From: Candidatus Geothermocultoraceae bacterium
GTDB taxonomy: Bacteria; Actinomycetota; Aquicultoria; SKW223; CALKMS01
NCBI GenBank assembly: GCA_036796755.1
Contig: DAIRCJ010000001.1
Location: forward strand, 1 to 54,823
Direction of reading: 5' to 3'
Length of the DNA: 54,823 bases
A program made the translations under genes and the position numbers. Below, piece by piece: positions 8,840 to 21,000 of the stretch (position 1 is the first letter of the stretch; the number at the start of each line of letters is the position of its first letter). Under the pieces are notes generated by a model. That model had not been told where the DNA came from. It saw only the letters and a list, made by a program, of their open reading frames with translations, and made no database searches.

Positions 8840-10038
8840 TGTCTGAAAAAAAACCCGAAGTTAAGGAAATTATCCTCGGGGTAACGGGGTCAATAGCTGC
8901 TTATAAATCTCCGGAAATAGTCAGTCGGTTGAAAAAAAGCGGCTATCAGGTTACGGTTGCTCTGACCCCTTCAGCGCAAAAATTTGTTGCTCCTTTAACC
9001 TTAGAGGTTCTTTCTGGAAACAAGGTTTACGCTGATATTTTTGATGAAGAGCCAGGGGTTTCCCATATTGAACTAGCCAGGAGGGCAAGCCTTTTTTTAG
9101 TGGCACCGGCCACTGCTGATTTTATTGCCCGAGCAGCTAATGGAATTGCTGATGACCCTGTCTCTTTGATTTATCTCTGTTGCGCCTGTCCGGTTGTCAT
9201 TGCTCCGGCGATGAATGAAAAGATGCTTAATCACCCGGCACTTAAAAAAAATCTGGAAACCCTGATAAGCCGGGGGACAATCGTGGTTGAGTCGGAAGAA
9301 GGTAAGCTTGCTTGCGGGGTAACTGGTAGAGGGCGACTGGCTTCGGTTGAGAAAATCCTAGAAACTGTGAAGCAAGTTTTGGAAAAATCGGAGTCCCTTA
9401 AGGGAAAAACAGTTTTGATTACCGCTGGCCCCACCCGGGAGAAAATTGACGAGGTGAGGTTTATTTCCAATTATTCATCGGGAAAGATGGGTCTGGCTTT
9501 AGCTAAAGAGGCTTTTTTGCGGGGAGCCAGGGTAGAGCTGGTTTGCGGTCCTACAACCCTTGACCCGCCATACGGTGTGCACCCGACTTATGTGGAAAGT
9601 GCGCAGGAGATGGAAAAAGCCTGTTTGAAAATTTTCCCTGAAACTGACATAACCATAATGGCAGCGGCTGTTTCTGATTATCGACCGGAAAAGGTAATGA
9701 AGGGTAAGCTCAAAAAGGAGGGGAGAGAATATCTGGAGTTAAAGCTGGTGAAGAATCCGGATATTTTAAGCAAGCTATCGCGAAAAAAGAAGCGAGGACA
9801 GATAATTGTTGGCTTCGCTGCTGAAACCGACAACTTACTTGAAGGAGCTCAAAAAAAACTTAAAGAAAAGAAACTTGACCTGGTGGTGGCAAACCTGGTG
9901 GGAAAGGGCAGAGGATTTGAACAGGACTATAACGAAGTAACCTTTGTTTTTCCCGACGGAAGAATGGAAAAGCTTCCTTTACTTTCTAAAACCTTAATCG
10001 CCCAAAAACTCTTCGACCTCCTCCAAAACTCAACTTAA
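8839..10038 (+). CDS. coaBC: bifunctional phosphopantothenoylcysteine decarboxylase / synthetase
   Basis: 399 aa. Has an N-terminal flavoprotein domain (ILGVTGSIAAYK) and a C-terminal DFP domain (ISNYSSGKMG). The ATG overlaps the rpoZ TAA. Confidence 0.92.
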   Translation: MSEKKPEVKEIILGVTGSIAAYKSPEIVSRLKKSGYQVTVALTPSAQKFVAPLTLEVLSGNKVYADIFDEEPGVSHIELARRASLFLVAPATADFIARAANGIADDPVSLIYLCCACPVVIAPAMNEKMLNHPALKKNLETLISRGTIVVESEEGKLACGVTGRGRLASVEKILETVKQVLEKSESLKGKTVLITAGPTREKIDEVRFISNYSSGKMGLALAKEAFLRGARVELVCGPTTLDPPYGVHPTYVESAQEMEKACLKIFPETDITIMAAAVSDYRPEKVMKGKLKKEGREYLELKLVKNPDILSKLSRKKKRGQIIVGFAAETDNLLEGAQKKLKEKKLDLVVANLVGKGRGFEQDYNEVTFVFPDGRMEKLPLLSKTLIAQKLFDLLQNST

Positions 10039-10344
10039 TCTTGGTACCCCTGGGTTAGACCCTCCGCCCACTCTAAACTTTTAAAGCAAATTCTTAATTT
10101 TCAATTTTTCTCTTTTTAATTTTTCCACTCCTTTTTTAAAATCTTCTGCCTTAAATTTTAAGGGGATTTAGGGGGAATTAAGAAACCCCACAATTAGGAA
10201 ATTGGTTTTTTCAAATCCCCCTACCCACTTATCCTGACGGATATAGGAGTTAGTAACCCGGAAACCTCTGAATCGTGAGCTTAATTTTCAGGATTTTGAG
10301 TCCAATATGCCTGATATATAATTTTCGGGCACACTGACATTTGT

Positions 10345-10373
10345 TTGAAGGAACGAGGTTTTATTGATAAAAT
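10345..10373 (+). promoter_or_regulatory. possible metK promoter
   Basis: TTGAAG (10345-10350), a 17-nt spacer, then TAAAAT (10368-10373). This lies about 38 nt upstream of the metK ATG (SD AAGGAGG). Called by eye only. Confidence 0.3.
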
Positions 10374-10410
10374 TATAAGGTTATACCTGTTGTGAATTAA
10401 GGAGGTGTAG

Positions 10411-11607
10411 ATGGCGCGTTATTTTTTTACTTCAGAATCAGTAACCGAAGGTCATCCTGATAAATTAGCTGATCAGATTTCCGATGCTGTTCTGGACGCT
10501 ATATACAAGGATGATCCTATGGGCAGGGTTGCTTGCGAAACTTTAGTTACCACCGGGTTAGTGATTGTAGCTGGCGAGATTAGCACCCAGACTTATGTTG
10601 ACATACCGAATTTAGTTAGAGGAATAATTAAAGAGGTTGGCTATACCCGAGCCAAATATGGCTTTGACGGAGATACCTGCGGAGTCATCACGGCCATTCA
10701 AGAACAATCTCCGGATATTTCTGAAGGCGTTGAACACGCCTACGAAGAAAGGACAGGAGAAGCTCAAGACGCCGAGCTTGACCGTCAGGGAGCCGGAGAC
10801 CAGGGAATGATGTTTGGTTATGCTTGCACGGAAACACCCGAGCTGATGCCCTTGCCTATAATGCTGGCTCATAAATTAGCTCATCGTTTGGCTGAGGTCA
10901 GGAAAGCTGAAATTTTACCTTATTTACGTCCGGATGGAAAATCTCAGGTGACGGTAGAATACGAAAATGGCAAGCCAGTGAGAGTTGATACTGTCTTAAT
11001 TGCTGCTCAGCATCGCCCGGGAGTTGATGTTGAGAACCTTTTGAAGCCCGATTTAATTGAGCATGTTATTAAGCCAATTCTTCCCGAAGAACTCGTTGAC
11101 TACCGCCGATTAAAAGTTATTGTTAATGCGGGTGGACGGTTTGAGATTGGGGGGCCAAAGGCTGACACCGGTCTAACCGGAAGAAAAATTATAGTGGATA
11201 CTTACGGGGGAGCAGCTCGTCACGGAGGAGGTTGTTTTTCTGGAAAAGACCCGACCAAGGTGGACCGTTCCGGCGCCTATATGGCCAGGTATGCCGCCAA
11301 AAATGTGGTGGCAGCTGGTCTGGCTGAAAGATGCGAAATTCAGGTTTCTTACGCTTTGGGCAAAGCCCGGCCCGTCTCTTTAACGGTGGAAACTTTTGGC
11401 ACGGAAAAGATTGAAGCCAGCAAAATTGAGGAAATTGTCAAAGAGGTTTTTGATTTCCGCCCAGCTGCTATCCTTAAGAACCTGGATTTGCGAAGGCCTA
11501 TTTATCGCAAGACCGCTTGTTACGGCCATTTTGGCCGCAGTGACAAAGACTTTACCTGGGAAAGAACCGACAAGGCTGATGAGTTAAAAAGATTAGCTGG
11601 CTTGTAG
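10411..11607 (+). CDS. metK: S-adenosylmethionine synthetase
   Basis: 398 aa. Has [29 protein letters not shown] and [16 protein letters not shown]. Confidence 0.97.
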
Positions 11608-11624
11608 TCTTTGTTTGGCTTTAA

Positions 11625-12614
11625 ATGAAAAAAGATACAGTGGCTTTCACTTCAACCATTCCGGTTGAGATAGTTTTCTCTTCCGGTCGAAAACCCGTTG
11701 ACCTCAACAACTTATTTATATCTTCTTCTGAGCAAAAAAACTACCTTAAGGAAGCCGAAGAACAAGGTTTACCTCGCAATTTATGCTCCTGGATTAAAGG
11801 AGTTTACATAGCAGCTTTAAAAACTAAAGCGAAGACGGTAATCGGAGTCTTAGAAGGCGACTGCAGCAATACTCATGCCTTGCTCGACCTCTGGAAGGAA
11901 AAAGGGATAGAGGTTATTCCTTTTTCTTATCCGGCTGACCGATGTCCAGAGCTTTTAAAGTTTCAAATAGAAAAGCTAAAAAAGAAGTTTAAGGTGAGCG
12001 ACCAGGAGCTAAACGAAACTCACCAAAAGCTCAATTCATTAAGAGAATTAGCCGACAGAATTGATTATTTAACTTGGAAGGAAAATCTTATAAGCGGTTT
12101 TGAAAACCATTTTTTTCTCATCAGCACCAGCGATTTTATTTCTTCAACGAAAGCCTATGAGAGAAAGGCTTCCAGGCTGATAGCTGAAGCCTCCAGAAGA
12201 GAGCCCTTCCCTCAAAAAGTACGTCTGGCATATGTGGGAGTTCCTCCGATTTTCCCGGAAATTTATCGCTTTCTGGAATCAATAGGAGCCCGGGTGGTGT
12301 ATAATGAAGTTCAGCGGCAGTTCACTATGCCAAAGAACCGCCATAACCTGATAGATCAGTATCTTTCTTATACTTTTCCCTATGATATCTATGCCCGCCT
12401 TGAAGACATCAAGGAAGAAGTGAAAAAAAGAGAGGTTCACGGCGTTATTAACTATGTTCAGAGCTTTTGCTATCGTTCCATTTATGAGTCTTTAATTAAA
12501 AGGAGCCTGAATTTGCCCGTTTTGACCATTGAAGGAGATTTACCCGGAGAGCTTGATTTTCGCACGCGGCTGCGGCTTCAAAGCTTTGTGGAAATGTTAA
12601 AGGGAAGGTTGTAA
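11625..12614 (+). CDS. 2-hydroxyacyl-CoA dehydratase / benzoyl-CoA reductase family protein (HgdB/BcrC-like, single subunit)
   Basis: 329 aa. The layout is typical of the HGD-D family, with spaced cysteines (NLCSWIKG, EGDCSNTH, QSFCYRS). Its stop overlaps the start of the activase gene. Confidence 0.65.
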   Translation: MKKDTVAFTSTIPVEIVFSSGRKPVDLNNLFISSSEQKNYLKEAEEQGLPRNLCSWIKGVYIAALKTKAKTVIGVLEGDCSNTHALLDLWKEKGIEVIPFSYPADRCPELLKFQIEKLKKKFKVSDQELNETHQKLNSLRELADRIDYLTWKENLISGFENHFFLISTSDFISSTKAYERKASRLIAEASRREPFPQKVRLAYVGVPPIFPEIYRFLESIGARVVYNEVQRQFTMPKNRHNLIDQYLSYTFPYDIYARLEDIKEEVKKREVHGVINYVQSFCYRSIYESLIKRSLNLPVLTIEGDLPGELDFRTRLRLQSFVEMLKGRL

Positions 12615-13375
12615 TGGCTCTGGGTCTGGATTTAGGCAGTCAAAGGGTCAAAGCAGTGGTTTTAAGCCAGAACCAGGTTAAAAAACGGAAATGCTGGCAA
12701 ACAGTGAATTTTTTTAACCAGTATTTAGAAAAAAAAGGTGAGGCCCTTCACCTTGTTAACTTTCCTCTTCTTGAAGAAAAGGTGGCTTTAACCGGTTATG
12801 GCTCAACTTTTTTAAAAGTGGCTCAAGGAGAAAAGGTAACCGAGATAACGGCTCATCTAAAGGGCACAATTTATTTTTGGGGGAGAAAATTGTCTGATTT
12901 CACTCTCCTTGATGTTGGCGGTCAGGACATCAAGGTTATTAAAGTTAGAGAAGGAAGGGTAGTGGATTTTTTGACCAATGACCGCTGTGCTGCTTCATCA
13001 GGAAGCTTTCTCCAGCATATGGCCAATTTTTTGAAGGTTGATTTGAGCTTTTTAATGAATCAGTATAAAAATCCAGTGGAACTTAACACCACCTGTTCAG
13101 TTTTTGCGGAAACCGAAATTATTGAGAAGTTGAGTCGGGGAACAAGCCTGGAAAGCCTTTGCGCCGGTATTAACCAGGCTCTTTACTTGAGAATTAAGCC
13201 TTTTCTTTTGAGGCTTCCTTCAGAGGTCGTTGTTCTTTCGGGTGGAGGTGGAAACAATCCCGCTCTGGCTTATTTTCTAAAAAAGGACCTGAAAGTGAAG
13301 GTTGAGTTTAATCCTTATCCTGAATACACCGGGGCGCTGGGATGCGCTTTAATAGCTGAGGAAGGCCGAGATTGA
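12614..13375 (+). CDS. acyl-CoA dehydratase activase (BadF/BadG/BcrA/BcrD ATPase family, HgdC-type)
   Basis: 253 aa. Has the ASKHA ATPase motifs LGLDLGSQ and DVGGQDIKVI, plus the cluster-ligand contexts NDRCAASSGSFL and TCSVFAETE. Confidence 0.8.
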   Translation: MALGLDLGSQRVKAVVLSQNQVKKRKCWQTVNFFNQYLEKKGEALHLVNFPLLEEKVALTGYGSTFLKVAQGEKVTEITAHLKGTIYFWGRKLSDFTLLDVGGQDIKVIKVREGRVVDFLTNDRCAASSGSFLQHMANFLKVDLSFLMNQYKNPVELNTTCSVFAETEIIEKLSRGTSLESLCAGINQALYLRIKPFLLRLPSEVVVLSGGGGNNPALAYFLKKDLKVKVEFNPYPEYTGALGCALIAEEGRD

Positions 13376-14055
13376 AATCAATTGTTTTGCTTTCAGCCGG
13401 GCTTGACTCAGTAGTTAATCTGGCTTTCGCCGCCAGGAAAACCCGAGTTCGAGCTGCTCTTACTTTTGACTACGGACAGAAAGCGGCAAAAAGGGAGGCT
13501 TATTTCTCAGCTCAGTTAGCCAGGTATTACGGCGTTGAAAGTGTCTTAGTTAAGCTTCCCTTCTATAAAAAAATAGGAAAAGCCGGCTTGTTGAAGGGAG
13601 AAGTTCCTAAAGTTAAAGCTGAAGAGCTTGAAGATAAAGAAATACTTAAGCAAAAGTCGCTTCAGGTCTGGGTGCCCAGCAGAAACCTGGTTTTTTTAGC
13701 GGTGGCTGCTGTTTTCGCTGAATACCTTGGGGCTGAAAAGATAGTTGCTGGTTTCAACCTTGAAGAGAGTCAGAACTTCCCTGACAACTCTTTTGAATTT
13801 TTAAAAGCAGTTAATGACACTTTAGTTTTTTCCACCCTCAAAAAAGTGGAAGCAATTTCCTATACTCTGAATATGACCAAGAAAGATATTGTTCAAAAGG
13901 GAATGGAGCTTAAGATACCCTGGGAGTTTGTCTGGTCCTGCTACCGGGGTTCGGAGAAAATGTGTGGACAATGCGAGTCCTGCCAGCGATTGATACGGGC
14001 AAGCCAGGGAAGCACCGCCTGGGAAGTTTTAAAGGGAAGGTTTAAAAATGCTTAA
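13372..14055 (+). CDS. queC: 7-cyano-7-deazaguanine (preQ0) synthase
   Basis: 227 aa. Has an N-terminal PP-loop (VLLSAGLDSVV) and the C-terminal Zn motif CGQCESCQRL. Confidence 0.9.
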   Translation: MKSIVLLSAGLDSVVNLAFAARKTRVRAALTFDYGQKAAKREAYFSAQLARYYGVESVLVKLPFYKKIGKAGLLKGEVPKVKAEELEDKEILKQKSLQVWVPSRNLVFLAVAAVFAEYLGAEKIVAGFNLEESQNFPDNSFEFLKAVNDTLVFSTLKKVEAISYTLNMTKKDIVQKGMELKIPWEFVWSCYRGSEKMCGQCESCQRLIRASQGSTAWEVLKGRFKNA

Positions 14056-14623
14056 AACCCTGTTTTACCACGACAATCAAGTTTTTTACGACGGCAGCCA
14101 GCTTGCTCCAGGCTGGATAGAAAAGAGATTTAATTTAAAAGGAGATTCCCTTGTCTCTTTTGTTGGCGGCTGCAATGTTAAGTTTGAGCATATGGTAGAT
14201 TTAAAAGATTTTGAGGAGAAAAATTTTATCCGCTCTGATTTGATGCTTCATTTTTTGGGAGAGTTTTTTTCCTCAAACGACCTTTACTTTAGTTTTGCTC
14301 TTCAAAGGCTTCTGGTTCTGCTGGCTAAAGAAACTCTTGAAGAAATGAGTCTTAAAAAATTAAACCGGGAAGGCGATGACCTTTATTATTTTAAAAGAGG
14401 GGAGAAAGGAAAGCTTTCAATCTCGGTAGCTACGGTTTCTTCCGTTTCCTCTCTCTTTCACTTTGCTTTGAACCTAAAAAAAACCGGCACTCCTGTGAAG
14501 GTGGCAACGATGAAAGATTTAGGAGTTGAAGCCTATGAGTTTGCCCCCCTTCTTCTTAAAAAATTTTCCTTTGAATACCAAAACCTGATTGAGGAGTCAA
14601 AAAGGGTCAGAAGGCGGGATTAG
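14048..14623 (+). CDS. uncharacterised protein embedded between queC and queE (possibly DUF366/COG2029-like)
   Basis: 191 aa. The ATG overlaps the queC stop. I recognised no catalytic motif. The DUF366 suggestion rests only on recalled gene context with queC/queE in archaea, not on a search. Confidence 0.4.
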   Translation: MLKTLFYHDNQVFYDGSQLAPGWIEKRFNLKGDSLVSFVGGCNVKFEHMVDLKDFEEKNFIRSDLMLHFLGEFFSSNDLYFSFALQRLLVLLAKETLEEMSLKKLNREGDDLYYFKRGEKGKLSISVATVSSVSSLFHFALNLKKTGTPVKVATMKDLGVEAYEFAPLLLKKFSFEYQNLIEESKRVRRRD

Positions 14624-14634
14624 AAGGAGGAAGG

Positions 14635-15405
14635 CTGAGCAAAGCAAACCTGGTTGAAGTTTTTACTTCCCTTCAGGGCGAAGGCACATTAATGGGAGTG
14701 CGTCAAATTTTTCTCCGTTTTTCTGGTTGTAATTTAAGGTGCGATTACTGCGATACCGATTTTTCTATAAAAAAGGAGTTCCGTCTGGAAAACCAACCTT
14801 TTTCTCAAAAATTTGTTTATTTACCTAATCCGGTGGATATATCCAGTTTATTGAGGTTGGTGGTTGATTTAAAAAAGAAAGCTCTTGCCAACTGGCTGAC
14901 CTTGACCGGGGGAGAACCCCTTTTACAGTCTGATTTTTTGTCTTCCTTTCTTTTAGAGGCAAGAAAAGAAGGCTTGAAGATATTTTTAGAAACTAACGCC
15001 ACTTTACCTGAAGAATTTTTAAAGGTTAAAAAATATCTGGATTTTGTTTCTATGGACTTAAAGTTACCTTTTCTCTCGCGCCCAAAGCGAGCTTTGAAAA
15101 AGCAGTTTGAGTTTTTTCGCCTTGCTTCCGAGCTCAAAGGGGAAGTTAAGCTGGTATTAGTTGATTTCGACCATTTTGCCGAAAAAAAGGGGGGAAGTAA
15201 AGCAGAAGATTTAATTGAAAACTTCCAAAAAAATATAAAGAAGTTTAGCCAGGTTTTGCCCTCACATCCTTTAATTCTTCAGCCAGCTACAGCTTTCTTC
15301 TCTCCCGACCTTTCAAAGATGCTAGAATACCAGGCTCTGGCTTTAGAAATTCATCCTGAGGTCAAACTACTGCCTCGCCTTCAAGTTTTGTATAATTTAC
15401 TTTAA
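14635..15405 (+). CDS. queE: 7-carboxy-7-deazaguanine synthase (radical SAM)
   Basis: Has the CX3CX2C motif GCNLRCDYCDT. The conserved QueE N-terminal block EVFTSLQGEGTLMG lies upstream of the first ATG (14692). The start is therefore placed at in-frame CTG 14635, 4 nt after GGAGG. The exact start is uncertain. Confidence 0.8.
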   Translation: MSKANLVEVFTSLQGEGTLMGVRQIFLRFSGCNLRCDYCDTDFSIKKEFRLENQPFSQKFVYLPNPVDISSLLRLVVDLKKKALANWLTLTGGEPLLQSDFLSSFLLEARKEGLKIFLETNATLPEEFLKVKKYLDFVSMDLKLPFLSRPKRALKKQFEFFRLASELKGEVKLVLVDFDHFAEKKGGSKAEDLIENFQKNIKKFSQVLPSHPLILQPATAFFSPDLSKMLEYQALALEIHPEVKLLPRLQVLYNLL

Positions 15406-15406
15406 G

Positions 15407-15757
15407 ATGAGTATGAAAATTGAGAAGCCCTGGGGAGAGGTTAAGCAGCTCACTTTTAATCAGAATGCGACTGTAAAGCTGATAACCCTGAAGCCCGGCC
15501 ACAAAACCAGCCTTCACCGCCATCACTTAAGGGATGATTTATGGTTAATTCTTGACGAGGGGATAACCGTCCAGATTGGTGAGGAATTGATAGAAACCAA
15601 GCCGGGTGAAGAATATGTGGTTCCGGCTGAAAAGCTTCACCGAATTATTTCTCAAGATAAAGAAGCCCGGGTTTTGGAAATTGCTTTTGGTTACAGCTTT
15701 GAAGATGACGATTATATGGTGGAAGACGATTACGGGCGCTTAACTTCCGAAAAATGA
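15407..15757 (+). CDS. small cupin protein (type II phosphomannose-isomerase C-terminal cupin-like)
   Basis: 116 aa. Has KPWGEVKQL...LKPGHKTSLHRHHLRDDLWLIL...EDDDYMVEDDYGR, which is a cupin metal-site pattern. Confidence 0.7.
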   Translation: MSMKIEKPWGEVKQLTFNQNATVKLITLKPGHKTSLHRHHLRDDLWLILDEGITVQIGEELIETKPGEEYVVPAEKLHRIISQDKEARVLEIAFGYSFEDDDYMVEDDYGRLTSEK

Positions 15758-16557
15758 AGTATTCGCTAATTACCTTTCTTTCTGACTTTGGTTTATCCGA
15801 CGAGTATGTGTCTTCTTGCCTTGGGGTTATAAAATCAATTGCTCCGCAAGTGGAGATTTTGAGCTTAACTCATCTGATACCCCCCGGCGATGTGCTCAAA
15901 GGAGCCTTCACTTTAGCCGCTTCCCTTCCCTATTTTCCTGAAAACTCTGTTCATCTGGCTATTGTTGACCCTGGAGTAGGAAGCGAAAGAAAAAAAATCG
16001 TGATCAAAGCTAAAAATGGAAGTCTTTTAGTCGGACCCGATAACGGTCTTTTTAGTCTGATTATAGAAAGAATTGGTTTGGTTTTAGTTCGGGAAATTAA
16101 AAATCCTTCTCTTCTGGCAGGAAAAGTAGCACCAACCTTTGAAGGCCGAGATGTTTTCGCCCCAGTCGCTGCTCGTCTTGCTCTGGGTTTTCCTTTTGAA
16201 GAAGTGGGACCGGAGACAAAACAGCTGGTGCCTCTAAAACTCCCTGAAGTTCAGCTTACCGCTGAAGGCTGGAAACTTACGGTGTTAGATATTGATAGAT
16301 TTGGCACAGTCAGGTTTAATTTTTTCTTTCCACGGTGGCCCAATTTTCCATTTAAATTTGGCGAAATGCTCATTTTCAAAACAACTGCCAAGGTTATTGA
16401 GGCCCCATTTTTAAGAACTTTTTCTGATGCCTCTCCAGATAATCCTCTTTTTTTTGAAGATTCCTCGGGCTTCCTTGCCCTGGCTATTAACCAGGGAAAT
16501 GCTGCTCTGAGGTTTAACCTGGAAAGGAACCATTCTGGTATACTGAGTAAAGCCTAA
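15754..16557 (+). CDS. SAM hydrolase / SAM-dependent halogenase family protein (DUF62, SAM hydroxide adenosyltransferase-like)
   Basis: 267 aa. Has ITFLSDFGLSDEYVSSCLGVIKSI, VDPGVGS and FEGRDVFAPVAA, which are typical of the DUF62 family. Confidence 0.8.
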   Translation: MKYSLITFLSDFGLSDEYVSSCLGVIKSIAPQVEILSLTHLIPPGDVLKGAFTLAASLPYFPENSVHLAIVDPGVGSERKKIVIKAKNGSLLVGPDNGLFSLIIERIGLVLVREIKNPSLLAGKVAPTFEGRDVFAPVAARLALGFPFEEVGPETKQLVPLKLPEVQLTAEGWKLTVLDIDRFGTVRFNFFFPRWPNFPFKFGEMLIFKTTAKVIEAPFLRTFSDASPDNPLFFEDSSGFLALAINQGNAALRFNLERNHSGILSKA

Positions 16558-16561
16558 AAAG

Positions 16562-18001
16562 ATGAGCGTAAGAGTAAGATTCGCTCCTAGCCCAACTGGA
16601 CATCTTCACCTTGGTGGTGCTCGAACGGCACTTTACAATTTCCTTTTTGCTCGCCAGAACAGAGGAAAGTTTATTTTAAGGATTGAAGATACCGATTTAA
16701 CACGCTCCACTGAGGAAGCCATTGAGAGTATTATCCAGGACCTATTATGGCTAGGACTAAACTGGGATGAGGGCCCGGATGTTGGCGGGCCTTACGGACC
16801 TTACCGCCAAACCCAAAGGCGAGAAATTTACCGTAAATACCTCGATATTCTATTAAAAAAGGGTCTGGCTTATTACTGCTACTGCTTCCCTGAAGAGCTG
16901 GAAAGGCAAAGGGAGGAAGCCAAAAGAAAAAAGGAAAGTTTTCGATATAATCGTCGCTGCCGCTTTTTATCTGACGAAGAAAGAAAGAAGTTAAGCAAGA
17001 CAAACCCTTCTCCCTCTATCCGTTTTTCTTCTCCTCTAAAAGGTGAAACAGTGGTTAAAGATTTAATAAGGGGGGAGGTGGTTTTTAAGCACTCAGAATT
17101 AGACGATTTTATTATTTTCCGTTCGGACGGGACACCAACCTATAACTTTGCGGCTACCATTGATGATGCCACTATGAAAATCACTCATGTTATCCGCGGG
17201 GACGATCACCTTTCTAACACTCCCAAACAAATAAACATTTATAGAGCATTGGGATTTGAAATTCCGCAGTTTGCACATCTCTCGATGATTTTGGGCCCGG
17301 ATAAAAAACCCCTTTCTAAAAGACATGGTGACACTGCTATATCACAATACCGACAAAAAGGGTTTCTTCCGCAAGCTATGGTCAATTACCTTGCTCTTTT
17401 GGGATGGTCTTATGACGACAAAACAACTTTTTTTACTCAGCAGGAATTAATAAAGTTTTTTTCCTTAAACCGAGTCTCCAAAAATCCAGCCGTCTTTGAT
17501 TTGGCTAAGCTCAAATGGTTAAATGGCCATTACTTAAGGCAGTTAGACGATTTAACCCTTTTTAAACTACTTCTTCCTTTTTTTGAAGAAAAAGTTATAG
17601 GTTTTAATGCTGAAAAGCTTAAAAAAGGCGTTCCCTTAATAAAAGAAAGGATTAGCGTTTTAAGTGAAGCTGTTGATTGGCTTGACTGGTTGTTTGCTTC
17701 AGATGTTCTTTACAATCAAGCCGATTTTAAAAAAATAGCCTCTCTTTCTCAGCTAGAGCTAATAATAAATAATGCTATTGAGGCTCTAAGCAAGCTTGAC
17801 AACTTCAAAGCTGAAGAGCTTCAAAATGTCTTGCGGGGGAAAGTTGCCGAGCTTGAAGTTAAGCCGAAGACTTTTTTTCAGACCCTTCGGCTGGCTATTA
17901 CTGGAAAGCTGGTCAGCCCGCCTTTATTTGAGTCAATGGAAATTTTAGGCAAAGAAGAAACTTTAAGAAGACTGAAAAAATTTTTAGACTGCTTTGTTTA
18001 A
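16562..18001 (+). CDS. gltX: glutamyl-tRNA synthetase
   Basis: 479 aa. Has the class I signatures PSPTGHLHLGGARTA (HIGH) and KPLSKRHG (KMSKS). Confidence 0.95.
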   Translation: MSVRVRFAPSPTGHLHLGGARTALYNFLFARQNRGKFILRIEDTDLTRSTEEAIESIIQDLLWLGLNWDEGPDVGGPYGPYRQTQRREIYRKYLDILLKKGLAYYCYCFPEELERQREEAKRKKESFRYNRRCRFLSDEERKKLSKTNPSPSIRFSSPLKGETVVKDLIRGEVVFKHSELDDFIIFRSDGTPTYNFAATIDDATMKITHVIRGDDHLSNTPKQINIYRALGFEIPQFAHLSMILGPDKKPLSKRHGDTAISQYRQKGFLPQAMVNYLALLGWSYDDKTTFFTQQELIKFFSLNRVSKNPAVFDLAKLKWLNGHYLRQLDDLTLFKLLLPFFEEKVIGFNAEKLKKGVPLIKERISVLSEAVDWLDWLFASDVLYNQADFKKIASLSQLELIINNAIEALSKLDNFKAEELQNVLRGKVAELEVKPKTFFQTLRLAITGKLVSPPLFESMEILGKEETLRRLKKFLDCFV

Positions 18002-18032
18002 ATCGTTATAGTCTCGTGATAGCATTTAACCT

Positions 18033-21000
18033 ATGATGGGAAAGGAAAGAAATAACTTTGTTCATTTACATGTTCATTCTGAGTTTTCCTTGCTTGATGG
18101 AGCGATAAAAATTCCCGAGCTGGTTGAACGCGCGGACGAGTTGGGTTTCAAAGCTCTGGCTCTAACCGATCACGGGGCAATGTACGGGGCAATTGATTTT
18201 TACCAGGAATGCGTGGAAAAAGGGATTAAGCCTATTATTGGTTGCGAAATTTATCTGGCTCGCCATAGCCGCTTTGATAAATCACAGCCCAAAGGAGATT
18301 CGCCTCATCATCTTCTGCTTCTGGCTGAGAACAACGAAGGCTATCAAAATCTCTGTCAGATAGTTACCCAGTCTTATCTTGAAGGCTATTACTATAAACC
18401 CCGGGCTGACAAAGAGCTTCTGGAAAAGTATTCCGGGGGCTTGATTGCCCTTTCCGCCTGCATAGCCGGGGAAATTCCCCGCGAGTTAATTAACAGCGGC
18501 GACCTCAAGAAAGCTCGAGAATTAGCGAGAGAATATCAGGAAATTTTTGGGAAGGAGAATTTTTTCCTTGAGATTCAAGACCACGGGATTAAAGAACAAA
18601 AAATCGCCAATGAAGGGTTAGTTAAAATTGGAAGGGAGTTAAAAATCCCTCTGGTCGCAACTAACGACATCCATTATTTGAATGCCAGGGACCGGGAAGC
18701 CCACGAGGTTTTGCTTTGTATTCAAACCAACTCAACTTTAAACGACGAGGACCGTTTGACTTTCTCTAGCGACCAGTTTTATTTGAAAAGCGAAAAGGAA
18801 ATGGCAAAGATTTTTGCTGACTATCCGGAAGCTTTAAGAAATACTCTTTGGATAGCTGAAAGAGTTAATTTAAACTTTGATTTTAACTCTCTTTATCTTC
18901 CTCATTACAGTGTCCCCGAGGGTTACACTCTGGAGAGCTACTTAAGGGAGCTTTGTTTTCAGGGGGCAAAGGAGCGCTTTGGAGAAGAGATCCCTCAAGA
19001 GGTTAAAGAAAGGTTAGAACACGAGCTCCAGGTTATCGAAAAGATGGGCTTTGCTGGCTATTTCTTAATTATCTGGGATGTGATTAACGCTGCTCGAGAA
19101 AGAGGAATAAGAGTGGGGCCGGGGCGGGGTTCAGCTGCGGGCAGCTTGGTGGCTTATGTTTTAAAAATAACCAGTATAAACCCGCTTGATTATGGCTTGC
19201 TTTTTGAAAGATTTCTTAATCCTGAACGAAGAACTATGCCCGATATAGACATTGACTTTTGCGAAGACCGCCGGGAGGAAATAATTAACTATGTTCGAGA
19301 AAAGTATGGAGAGGACAGAGTGGCTCAGATTATTACTTTTTCGACGATGAAAGCCCGGGCAGCGGTTCGAGACGCTGGAAGGGTGACGGGGTATTCCTAC
19401 AGTTTTGTTGACAAGTTAGCTAAGTTAATCACTAAAGAAACCATTGAGCAGTCAATTTCAGAAGTCAGTGAGGTAAGAGAAAAGTATCAGAACGACGAAG
19501 ACGCCCGACGAATCCTGGACACTGCCAGACGGCTTGAAGGGCTTGTCCGACAGGACTCCATTCACGCTGCTGGGGTGGTGATTTCTCGCGAACCGCTTAC
19601 CCGGCTGGTTCCTCTCCAAAGAAAAGGAGACGCTGAGATAGTTACTCAGTACTCCATGGGAGCTCTGGGAAAATTAGGCCTGCTTAAAATGGATTTCCTT
19701 GGTTTAAGAACTTTGACCGTTATAGAAAACGCATTAAAACTTATTGAGGAAAATCGGGGCATAAAACTTGACCTTGATAGCTTACCTTTAGATGACGAAA
19801 AAACTTACCAGCTAATTCAGGAAGGCAACACAGTCGGGGTTTTTCAGTTAGAAAAAGCAGGAATGAGGGAATTGCTTAAAGAACTTAAACCTACCCGATT
19901 TGAGGACATTGTGGCTGCTAACGCTTTAAATCGACCTGGCCCAATAAAAAGCGGAATGGTCCGGGATTTTATAGACCGCAAACATGGCCGAAAACCGATT
20001 GTCTATCCTCACCCTTTGCTCGAAAAGATTTTAGAAGAAACCTACGGAACAATAGTTTATCAGGAGCAGGTTATGGGAATTGCCAGTGAACTTGCTGGCT
20101 ACACTATGGCCGAAGCTGACATTTTACGGAAGGCAATGAGCAAAAAAGAGAAAAACCTGCTGGAAGAGCAAAAAAGGATTTTTGTAAGCAAAGCAGTGGA
20201 AAAAGGAGTAGAAAAAGAAAAAGCTATCTCAATCTTTGAGACAATGGCTCCTTTCGTTGAATACGCTTTTAACAAAAGCCACAGCACAGCTTACGCTTTA
20301 ATCGCGTATCAGACGGCTTATTTGAAAGCCCACTATCCAATTGAGTTTCTAACCGCTCTCCTTTCCAGCGTGAAGGAAGACAAGGACAAGGTGGCCCTTT
20401 ATATTTACGAAGCTAAAAAATGGGGAATTAAAATCTTTTTGCCTGATGTGAACAAAAGCCAGGAAGACTTTTCCATTGAGGGGAATTCCATTCGGTTTGG
20501 CCTTTCGGCCATCCGGAATGTGGGCAGCAGTGTAGTAGAAGAGATAATTTCTTCTCGCCAGACCCGGCCTTTTCAGAGTTTCTTGGACTTTTTAACCCGA
20601 GTTGACCTTTCTCGAGTCAATAAAAAAGCTGTCGAAAGTTTAATCAAGGCTGGCGCTTTTGATTCACTTGGATACAAAAGAAAAGAGCTTTTAAATAGCT
20701 ATCCATTATTTTTAGAGATGATTCAGAAACAAAAGAAAGAACAGGAGAAAGGTCAGATGTCCCTTTTTGGCAAAGAAGAAGTTGAGGAAACAAAAGAAAA
20801 CATAGAGAAGTTAGGGGAGTTTGAACAATCTGAGCTGCTTTCAATGGAAAAGGAAATGCTGGGCGTTTATGTGAGTGGCCATCCCTTGACCGGCCTGGAA
20901 AAACTTCTTGAGTTTCACATCTCTCACACTTCCAGCGCTCTGGAGGAAACCGTTGACGGTCAGGAAATAGTAGTCGGCGGTGTTATTACTTCCCTTAAGA

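Follow-up and report, generated by a model that had tools for sequence, protein, structure and literature searches.

The four-electron reduction of the nitrile group of 7-cyano-7-deazaguanine (preQ0) to the aminomethyl group of preQ1 is the QueF step of the queuosine pathway, and where a bacterium has no QueF it is usually assumed to take up preQ0 or preQ1 by salvage; a review of 2016 states that salvage of precursors is obligatory in organisms that have Tgt and lack QueF (PMC5699537). Among iron-sulphur (Fe-S) enzymes of the HGD-D superfamily, the double-cubane cluster protein (DCCP) of Carboxydothermus hydrogenoformans and its partner DCCP-R (6ENO, 7YYL) combine a single kind of catalytic subunit with an HgdC-like ATPase, and DCCP reduces small unsaturated molecules, not coenzyme A (CoA) esters (PMC7317905). 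Here a stretch of 54,823 nucleotides from a Candidatus Geothermocultoraceae bacterium of the Actinomycetota (contig DAIRCJ010000001.1, assembly GCA_036796755.1; the whole stretch is referred to as the window) was analysed. Between metK and gltX it contains a block of seven genes, in which those for an HgdB-like protein and an HgdC-type activase precede queC, a DUF366 gene, queE, a cupin gene and a DUF62 gene (Table 1). Comparison of gene content, linkage and predicted structure makes it fairly likely that the HgdB-like protein and the activase form an ATP-dependent [4Fe-4S] reductase, which would replace QueF by non-orthologous displacement.

The assembly, 97.8% complete, consists of 112 contigs totalling 1.46 Mb. 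Judged by DnaE, its closest named kin are uncultured Actinomycetota, Ca. Oleimmundimicrobium and Ca. Aquicultorales. An earlier note, made from the letters of this DNA, had remarked that the window has no queD, folE, queF or tgt. FolE, QueD and bacterial Tgt were located on other contigs, as were QueA and the adjoining QueH, while queF was nowhere to be found, with no match to PF14489 in the entire assembly; QueG was also not found in the genome. As all the other genes leading from GTP to queuosine are present, the conversion of preQ0 to preQ1 is the sole unfilled step. The activase-dependent pair was considered as a substitute for QueG or QueH and rejected, QueH being present beside QueA. The genome's only QueD is the C-terminal half of a 264-residue frame on another contig (C6, L001:1066-1857, + strand; TIGR03367 matched residues 146-235, over its cut-off), which begins with an RNase HI domain as its N-terminal half (NF005567 and NF041306, residues 2-135); such an RNase H-QueD fusion is unusual.

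The distribution of the HgdB-like gene and of QueF was compared in 401 genomes of the same phylum, 41 of which carry a full-length HgdB-like orthologue (38-76% identity). QueF scored over its cut-off in 57 genomes, QueA was present in 270 and QueC in 79, and the HgdB-like gene and QueF were never found together (0/401). All 41 carriers encode QueA and 38 encode QueC, the three others being 83-91% complete. Of the 79 genomes with QueC, 38 have the HgdB-like gene but not QueF, 37 have QueF but not the HgdB-like gene and four have neither; two of these four are without QueA, and the other two are represented by assemblies in 640 and 780 contigs. Just three of the 322 genomes without QueC have the HgdB-like gene. 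QueF without QueC was observed in 20 genomes of the phylum, presumed to be preQ0 salvagers, and the HgdB-like gene without QueC almost never. The carriers span 12 families and the QueF genomes ∼14, with both kinds inside the window's own class, and the family-level distribution still needs several switches.

The earlier note had also allowed that the cluster might make a deazapurine other than queuosine. Such a product could serve DNA modification or be a secondary metabolite. preQ0 is a known branch point to both kinds of product (PMC5699537), and the reaction of the HgdB-like protein is itself a matter of inference. However, the genome's only gene of the TGT family is of the bacterial tRNA-G34 type (TIGR00430, 521 bits), so that DNA modification with preQ0 would have no second TGT paralogue to draw on; QueA and QueH are both encoded, QueA accompanies the HgdB-like gene in every carrier of the phylum sample, and no dpd-like or tailoring genes are conserved beside the cluster in the extended loci. 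A product outside the queuosine pathway is therefore very improbable, and this part of the note was not upheld.

Copies of the HgdB-like gene that are not linked to que genes provided a prediction made in advance, namely that QueC and QueA should be present and QueF absent. This combination was found in G413, G414 and G415, each of which has an unlinked copy. In the phylum of G415 (14 genomes) the eight carriers all lack QueF and seven of them have QueC, while five non-carriers all have both QueF and QueC and one genome has none of the three genes. In the phylum of G413 all 25 genomes are carriers and 24 lack QueF. Conversely, two Planctomycetota genomes have QueF and no HgdB-like gene. Over all samples together, QueF is present in one of 74 carriers.

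The note had proposed that linkage of the pair to queC and queE in this genome only would argue against a functional connection. A neighbourhood survey demonstrated that the linkage recurs across many families: queC, the DUF366 gene or queE lies within 1.5 kb of the HgdB-like gene in nearly all of 30 loci from the phylum, and the order HgdB-like-[activase]-QueD-[QueC]-DUF366-QueE is kept in 18 of 20 extended loci from different families of that phylum. The suggested tie between the activase module and 7-deazaguanine synthesis was thus supported, and the undescribed reductive step that the note had left general can be narrowed to a candidate, the missing QueF step.

The HgdB-like protein aligned over residues 10-325 with positions 2-342 of PF06050 (133.3 bits against a cut-off of 28.4). 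Its AlphaFold model, with a predicted local distance difference test (pLDDT) score of 92.5, returned Foldseek matches to 3O3N_B, 6ENO, 8S02 and 9GAI (E values 1e-15 to 1e-11; template modelling (TM) scores on the query, TMq, 0.75-0.82) and superposed at a TM of ∼0.8 on HadC, HadB, DCCP and BzdO/MbdO of the class I benzoyl-CoA reductases. Twenty-one orthologues from several phyla (42-76% identity to the window protein) all keep three cysteines, C54, C80 and C282, while the window protein's fourth cysteine varies among them. C54 and C282 line up with the ‘NLC’ and ‘FC’ motifs of DCCP, and the invariant cysteines are the putative ligands of a predicted Fe-S cluster.

Among proteins of solved structure DCCP gave the best sequence match, a weak one (3e-6). 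Membership of the DCCP family was rejected on a score of 57.9 bits with NF040772 (cut-off 350) and on the three invariant cysteines, the [8Fe-9S] cluster needing six. A genuine DCCP is encoded elsewhere in the same genome (contig C2:31092-32132, L004; NF040772 484 bits). The low score of the HgdB-like protein and the presence of the true DCCP together place it, on sequence criteria, in a distinct, shorter, single-cluster branch of the HGD-D superfamily. Two weak HGD-D fragments were observed on contig C62. The protein also differs from a 2-hydroxyacyl-CoA dehydratase proper; the operon and all related loci have one HGD-D gene and no paralogous pair, and the HadC equivalog model gave 26.6 bits against a cut-off of 700. 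No CoA-transferase or ligase gene is conserved nearby in the extended or the metagenome loci. The family comprises 3070 proteins at E <= 1e-10 (90%-identity clusters), and a FastTree phylogeny of 113 members, rooted on the genome's own DCCP, recovered one compact family in which the que-linked members are interspersed with unlinked ones, in two or more well-supported positions and, by parsimony, most likely in five.

The activase exceeded the TIGR00241 cut-off (163.9 against 125.4 bits), and its best solved relatives are DCCP-R (7YYL_E, 7e-36), HgdC (1HUX) and HadI (4EHT). The alignment with DCCP-R and HgdC covers the full length, and the contexts of the cluster cysteines, ‘DrCAA’ and ‘tCsVFAE’, are kept. 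Of the carriers without an adjacent activase gene, 19/20 encode an activase elsewhere; in the phylum of G415 exactly one was found in each of four carriers tested and none in two QueF genomes tested. A fold and an activase partner of this kind are typical of ATP-driven low-potential reductases and dehydratases, so the enzyme class fits the QueF step.

These data allow a mechanism to be proposed. The activase would take an electron from a low-potential donor, e.g. ferredoxin, and ATP hydrolysis by the activase would drive it onto the HgdB-like protein, into a [4Fe-4S] cluster. With the cluster held by the three invariant cysteines, one iron would be free for the substrate, and repeated transfers of electrons and protons could reduce the C-N triple bond; the preQ1 formed would pass to Tgt, QueA and QueH. 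We infer the reaction, its electron stoichiometry and any part taken by DUF366, and the substrate may be preQ0, either free or in tRNA, or a precursor in the form of an amide or carboxylate. In a more exotic version, the HgdB-like protein would work with a ligase-like DUF366 protein on an activated carboxy or amido intermediate, bypassing free preQ0.

The 191-residue protein encoded between queC and queE was identified as DUF366, as the earlier note had guessed, by its match to PF04017 and to 2DDZ (4e-30). Its model (pLDDT 95.9) matched PH0223 (2DDZ) at a TM of 0.93; the next matches, with TM scores of 0.5-0.63 and 10-18% identity, were to catalytic domains of protein ligases for biotin and lipoate; a Pfam search gave no match to the biotin/lipoate ligase families. 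A lysine, K122, is invariant in a GKLS-I-S context. A QueF-like catalytic cysteine in DUF366 was rejected, the cysteine at position 42 being variable and none conserved, and an assignment as a B3/B4 or TilS-like tRNA-binding domain was set aside on the result of the fold search.

The gene for DUF366 lies inside the que cluster across the window's phylum. It is unlinked in the phylum of G415, where it is present in 8/8 carriers and 0/5 QueF genomes, and it was also found in G413 and G414; in the window's class there was no match in the four (of seven) genomes with both QueF and QueC that the search covered. It is conceivable from this pattern, and from the resemblance of the fold with its invariant lysine to adenylate-forming ligases, that DUF366 is the real substitute for QueF or an obligatory catalytic partner, which might, for instance, activate a deazaguanine carboxylate or amide by adenylation for reduction by the Fe-S enzyme. 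However, DUF366 has no conserved cysteine or redox-cofactor motif, and one carrier (G315, 89% complete) has no match to it. It also occurs where the HgdB-like gene is absent or would not be needed. A Methanobrevibacter locus (L049) has DUF366-queD-queE, and such archaeal clusters need no preQ1; a Thermaerobacter-like contig (L048) has queD-queC-DUF366-queE-folE2-methyltransferase; and in the two QueF-containing Planctomycetota (L047 and L050) the gene stands between a HEAT-repeat or unknown gene and genes for an LPG_synthase_TM membrane protein and a PfkB kinase. We regard a QueF-like or obligatory catalytic role for DUF366 as decidedly unlikely; it is read here as an accessory of an archaeal-type preQ0 cluster, possibly one that would bind or adenylate a carboxylate intermediate. 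Full-text literature searches for DUF366, COG2029 or PF04017 found no paper. The present reading, if correct, also draws attention to DUF366 as an overlooked participant in the synthesis of 7-deazaguanines, in archaea as well as in bacteria.

The QueC of the window scored over the TIGR00364 cut-off of 150.3 bits, and the zinc-binding cysteine cluster C-x8-C-x2-C-x2-C is present in the translation (CYRGSEKMCGQCESC). It belongs to the lower-scoring subtype, which is the one that accompanies the HgdB-like gene. Scores against PF06508 were ∼1e-40 to 1e-50 in most HgdB-like carriers, with a few of 1e-61 to 1e-78, and ∼1e-55 to 1e-80 in QueF genomes; two QueC score classes that track the partner suggest two versions of the whole pathway.

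For queE the note had considered a start at CTG 14635. The frame is open from 14593, after a stop at 14590-14592, and has no in-frame ATG, GTG or TTG before ATG 14692, upstream of which the block V-E-V-F-T-S-L-Q-G-E-G is encoded. The sequence GGAGG at 14625-14629 is 5 nucleotides ahead of the CTG, the closest relative (L008, HgdB-like protein 76% identical) has TTG at the matching codon, and the 19-residue extension raised the scores of all QueE models (78.8 bits with it, 62.1 without). The CTG start is well supported by these observations. With this start both the radical S-adenosylmethionine (SAM) motif CX3CX2C and the N-terminal F-x-S-x-QGEG block are present. QueE models are the top NCBIfam matches, yet all score below their equivalog cut-offs (78.8 against 260), and the protein occupies the queE slot of the conserved que clusters.

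The pair, besides its inverse relation to QueF, co-varies with DUF366 and with one subtype of QueC, and it shares an operon with queE. This would also be compatible with service at another step of a variant preQ0 pathway, either as a dedicated low-potential electron supply to the divergent radical-SAM QueE or in the processing of a carboxy or amido intermediate with the variant QueC and DUF366, the QueF step being covered by salvage or an unseen gene. However, this would leave the QueF hole in 73 genomes, all or nearly all with QueA where tested; HGD-D proteins convert substrates and are not electron carriers for other enzymes; and the pair is unlinked to queE in three lineages in which it still tracks the absence of QueF. 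Furthermore, salvage of preQ1 would make the cell's own preQ0 synthesis pointless, with one TGT-family gene only to use the preQ0. Another step for the pair is therefore unlikely, and displacement of QueF is the reading retained.

Several observations weigh against displacement of QueF by the pair. The support comes purely from comparative genomics, and we know of no HGD-D protein for which nitrile reduction has been demonstrated. The sampled genomes are related to one another and many are metagenome-assembled genomes (MAGs), so that naive Fisher P values overstate the support. One genome, G434, carries both QueF and the HgdB-like gene; its QueF (C36:61644-61868, L166) is in a stretch of 54% G+C, adjoining a MetH-like gene and away from que genes, the HgdB-like stretch (C9, L167) has 61% G+C, and the double could be bin contamination or true co-occurrence. 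The subtype of QueC, and perhaps that of QueE, co-varies with the pair, the whole variant pathway moving together, and the phyletic pattern of DUF366 is nearly the same as that of the HgdB-like gene, so the profile alone cannot name the catalytic protein. Upstream of the HgdB-like gene no preQ1 riboswitch was detected in 80 loci (Rfam, gathering threshold), nor was the A-rich tail pattern of such riboswitches found within 350 nucleotides upstream of the gene in the 80 metagenome loci.

Linkage outside the phylum is also sparse, which counts on the same side. Of the 80 best metagenome loci only three have que genes within 2.5 kb, 42 showing the gene alone and 35 an adjacent activase. In Syntrophomonadaceae and Thermosyntropha (L043, L044, L046, L056 and L057) pairs with ∼50% identity stand in a conserved housekeeping row, murI - HgdB-like - activase - metallo-beta-lactamase (MBL)-fold hydrolase - fumarase alpha/beta - rph - rdgB; the gene follows that for a SpoU methylase in a MAG labelled Deltaproteobacteria and coaX in Coatesbacteria. 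Across the phylum of G415 (L045, L058-L065) a SpoU-type methyltransferase gene, the HgdB-like gene, an unannotated gene of 350 codons and tRNA-Met are kept together. A link to tRNA genes near the HgdB-like gene was considered and rejected, these being tRNA-Met and tRNA-Arg, which are not queuosine substrates. Such settings away from que genes, above all that between murI and fumarase/rph, are what would be expected if the genes in the window had come together by chance in a compact genome, with the pair acting on an unrelated substrate, e.g. a 2-hydroxyacyl-CoA. Against this, adjacency is kept across many families, the pair excludes QueF and depends on QueC in each of three phyla, and neither a CoA-transferase nor a second subunit is encoded nearby; coincidence of this kind is highly improbable.

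The seven genes occupy 11625-16557, with 17 nucleotides between metK and the block and 4 between the block and gltX. The earlier note's description of them as co-directional held for all seven, and its family assignments were upheld by profile searches. The six junctions are, in order, overlaps of 1, 4 and 8 nucleotides, gaps of 11 (with CTG 14635) and 1 nucleotides and an overlap of 4 nucleotides. A promoter and terminator scan of 9900-18200 returned counts equal to the shuffled expectation and was uninformative on the limits of the operon; metK through gltX may form one long transcript, if there is no internal promoter. The metK leader is 372 nucleotides long (10039-10410) and holds the region's sole intergenic sigma-70-like site, at 10345-10373.

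Table 1. Genes of the metK-gltX interval (window coordinates)
Feature	Position	Strand	Profile evidence and remarks
metK	10411..11607		Upstream flank
HgdB-like single-subunit HGD-D family protein, 329 aa	11625..12614	+	PF06050, 133 bits
HgdC/DCCP-R-type ATP-dependent activase, 253 aa	12614..13375	+	TIGR00241, 164 bits; start overlaps preceding stop
QueC, 7-cyano-7-deazaguanine (preQ0) synthase, 227 aa	13372..14055	+	TIGR00364, 165 bits
DUF366 protein, 191 aa	14048..14623	+	PF04017, 175 bits
QueE, radical-SAM 7-carboxy-7-deazaguanine synthase, divergent subtype	14635..15405 (CTG) or 14692..15405 (ATG)	+	Radical SAM; QueE models top
Small cupin, 116 aa	15407..15757	+	PF01050 and PF07883
DUF62 / SAM hydroxide adenosyltransferase family protein, 267 aa	15754..16557	+	PF01887 (SAM_HAT_N) and PF20257 (SAM_HAT_C)
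gltX	16562..18001		Downstream flank

The note had placed the last two genes of the block, for the cupin and the DUF62 protein, in one tight operon with the others and had seen a SAM theme in the co-location of metK, QueE and a SAM hydrolase. Both genes occur with the cluster in the window's genus only (the cupin gene in L008) and are absent from the 20 extended loci of other families. The DUF62 protein scored over the cut-offs of PF01887 (168 bits) and PF20257 (47 bits) and at 177 bits with NF058624, below its cut-off of 350; it is probably an (R)-SAM hydrolase. According to a recent preprint, DUF62 enzymes have a housekeeping role in repair, hydrolysing the (R) form of SAM that arises by epimerisation (bioRxiv 10.1101/2025.08.29.672840), and such a role suits a place after metK, so that no link to deazapurines is needed. 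The cupin and DUF62 genes are genus-specific passengers, and neither their membership of the system nor the SAM theme was supported.

Full-text searches found no paper linking HGD-D proteins, activases or double-cubane proteins to preQ0, preQ1 or QueF. If the proposed displacement is true, a large set of anaerobes makes its own preQ1 with an enzyme unrelated to QueF, including deep Actinomycetota, Coatesbacteria, the small phylum that holds the MAG labelled Deltaproteobacteria and, by their homologues, Syntrophomonadaceae; reconstructions of the supply of queuosine and queuine in anoxic communities would change accordingly. Orphan pairs of HgdB-like protein and activase would gain a defined, assayable substrate, and the widespread single-subunit pairs a first physiological role. 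ATP-coupled Fe-S radical or low-potential chemistry would also reach nitrile reduction, which is of interest in biocatalysis. The balance tips slightly towards the broadest form of the proposal, that many anaerobes obtain their preQ1 from an oxygen-sensitive, ATP-driven HGD-D enzyme with a [4Fe-4S] cluster, which would be a third, mechanistically unrelated nitrile reduction in biology.

Among the systems with which the candidate was compared, both features of DCCP and DCCP-R given at the outset, the subunit arrangement and the reduction of small unsaturated molecules, were counted as likenesses, and they are its closest solved relatives; the HgdB-like protein is, in contrast, ∼90 residues shorter and has three invariant cysteines in place of the six for [8Fe-9S]. 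The 2-hydroxyacyl-CoA dehydratases (HgdAB/HgdC, HadBC/HadI; 3O3M, 1HUX, 4EHT) share with it the fold (TM 0.8), a three-cysteine [4Fe-4S] site, predicted for the candidate, and an ATP-dependent homologous activase. They are, however, heterodimers of paralogous subunits that act on CoA thioesters with a catalytically recycled electron, whereas the candidate has one subunit type, is not accompanied by genes of CoA metabolism and would require net reduction. Class I benzoyl-CoA reductases (BcrABCD, BzdNOPQ, MbdONPQ; 8S02, 9GAI) resemble it in the stoichiometric ATP-driven electron transfer proposed for it, in the difficulty of the reduction and in the shared fold of the catalytic subunits, and differ in having four subunits and aromatic CoA thioester substrates.

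Within the queuosine pathway, QueG and QueH provide a precedent for a redox step displaced non-orthologously by different Fe-S enzymes, the present genome using QueH; that displacement concerns the last step and is experimentally established, whereas the candidate is known from genomics. QueF occupies the same position as the candidate, often clusters with queC, queD and queE, and is mutually exclusive with the HgdB-like gene among preQ0 makers. There is no kinship of sequence or fold between the two, and the candidate would be a functional analogue only: QueF acts through a cysteine thioimide and two NADPH, while catalysis by the candidate would depend on ATP, on electrons delivered singly and on a [4Fe-4S] cluster, and sensitivity to oxygen is to be expected. 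The queCDEF operon of Bacillus subtilis (ykvJKLM) likewise unites the preQ0 genes with the enzyme of the preQ1 step; the clusters described here differ in carrying the HgdB-like gene, with or without the activase gene, at the operon head in the stead of queF, and the DUF366 gene between queC and queE.

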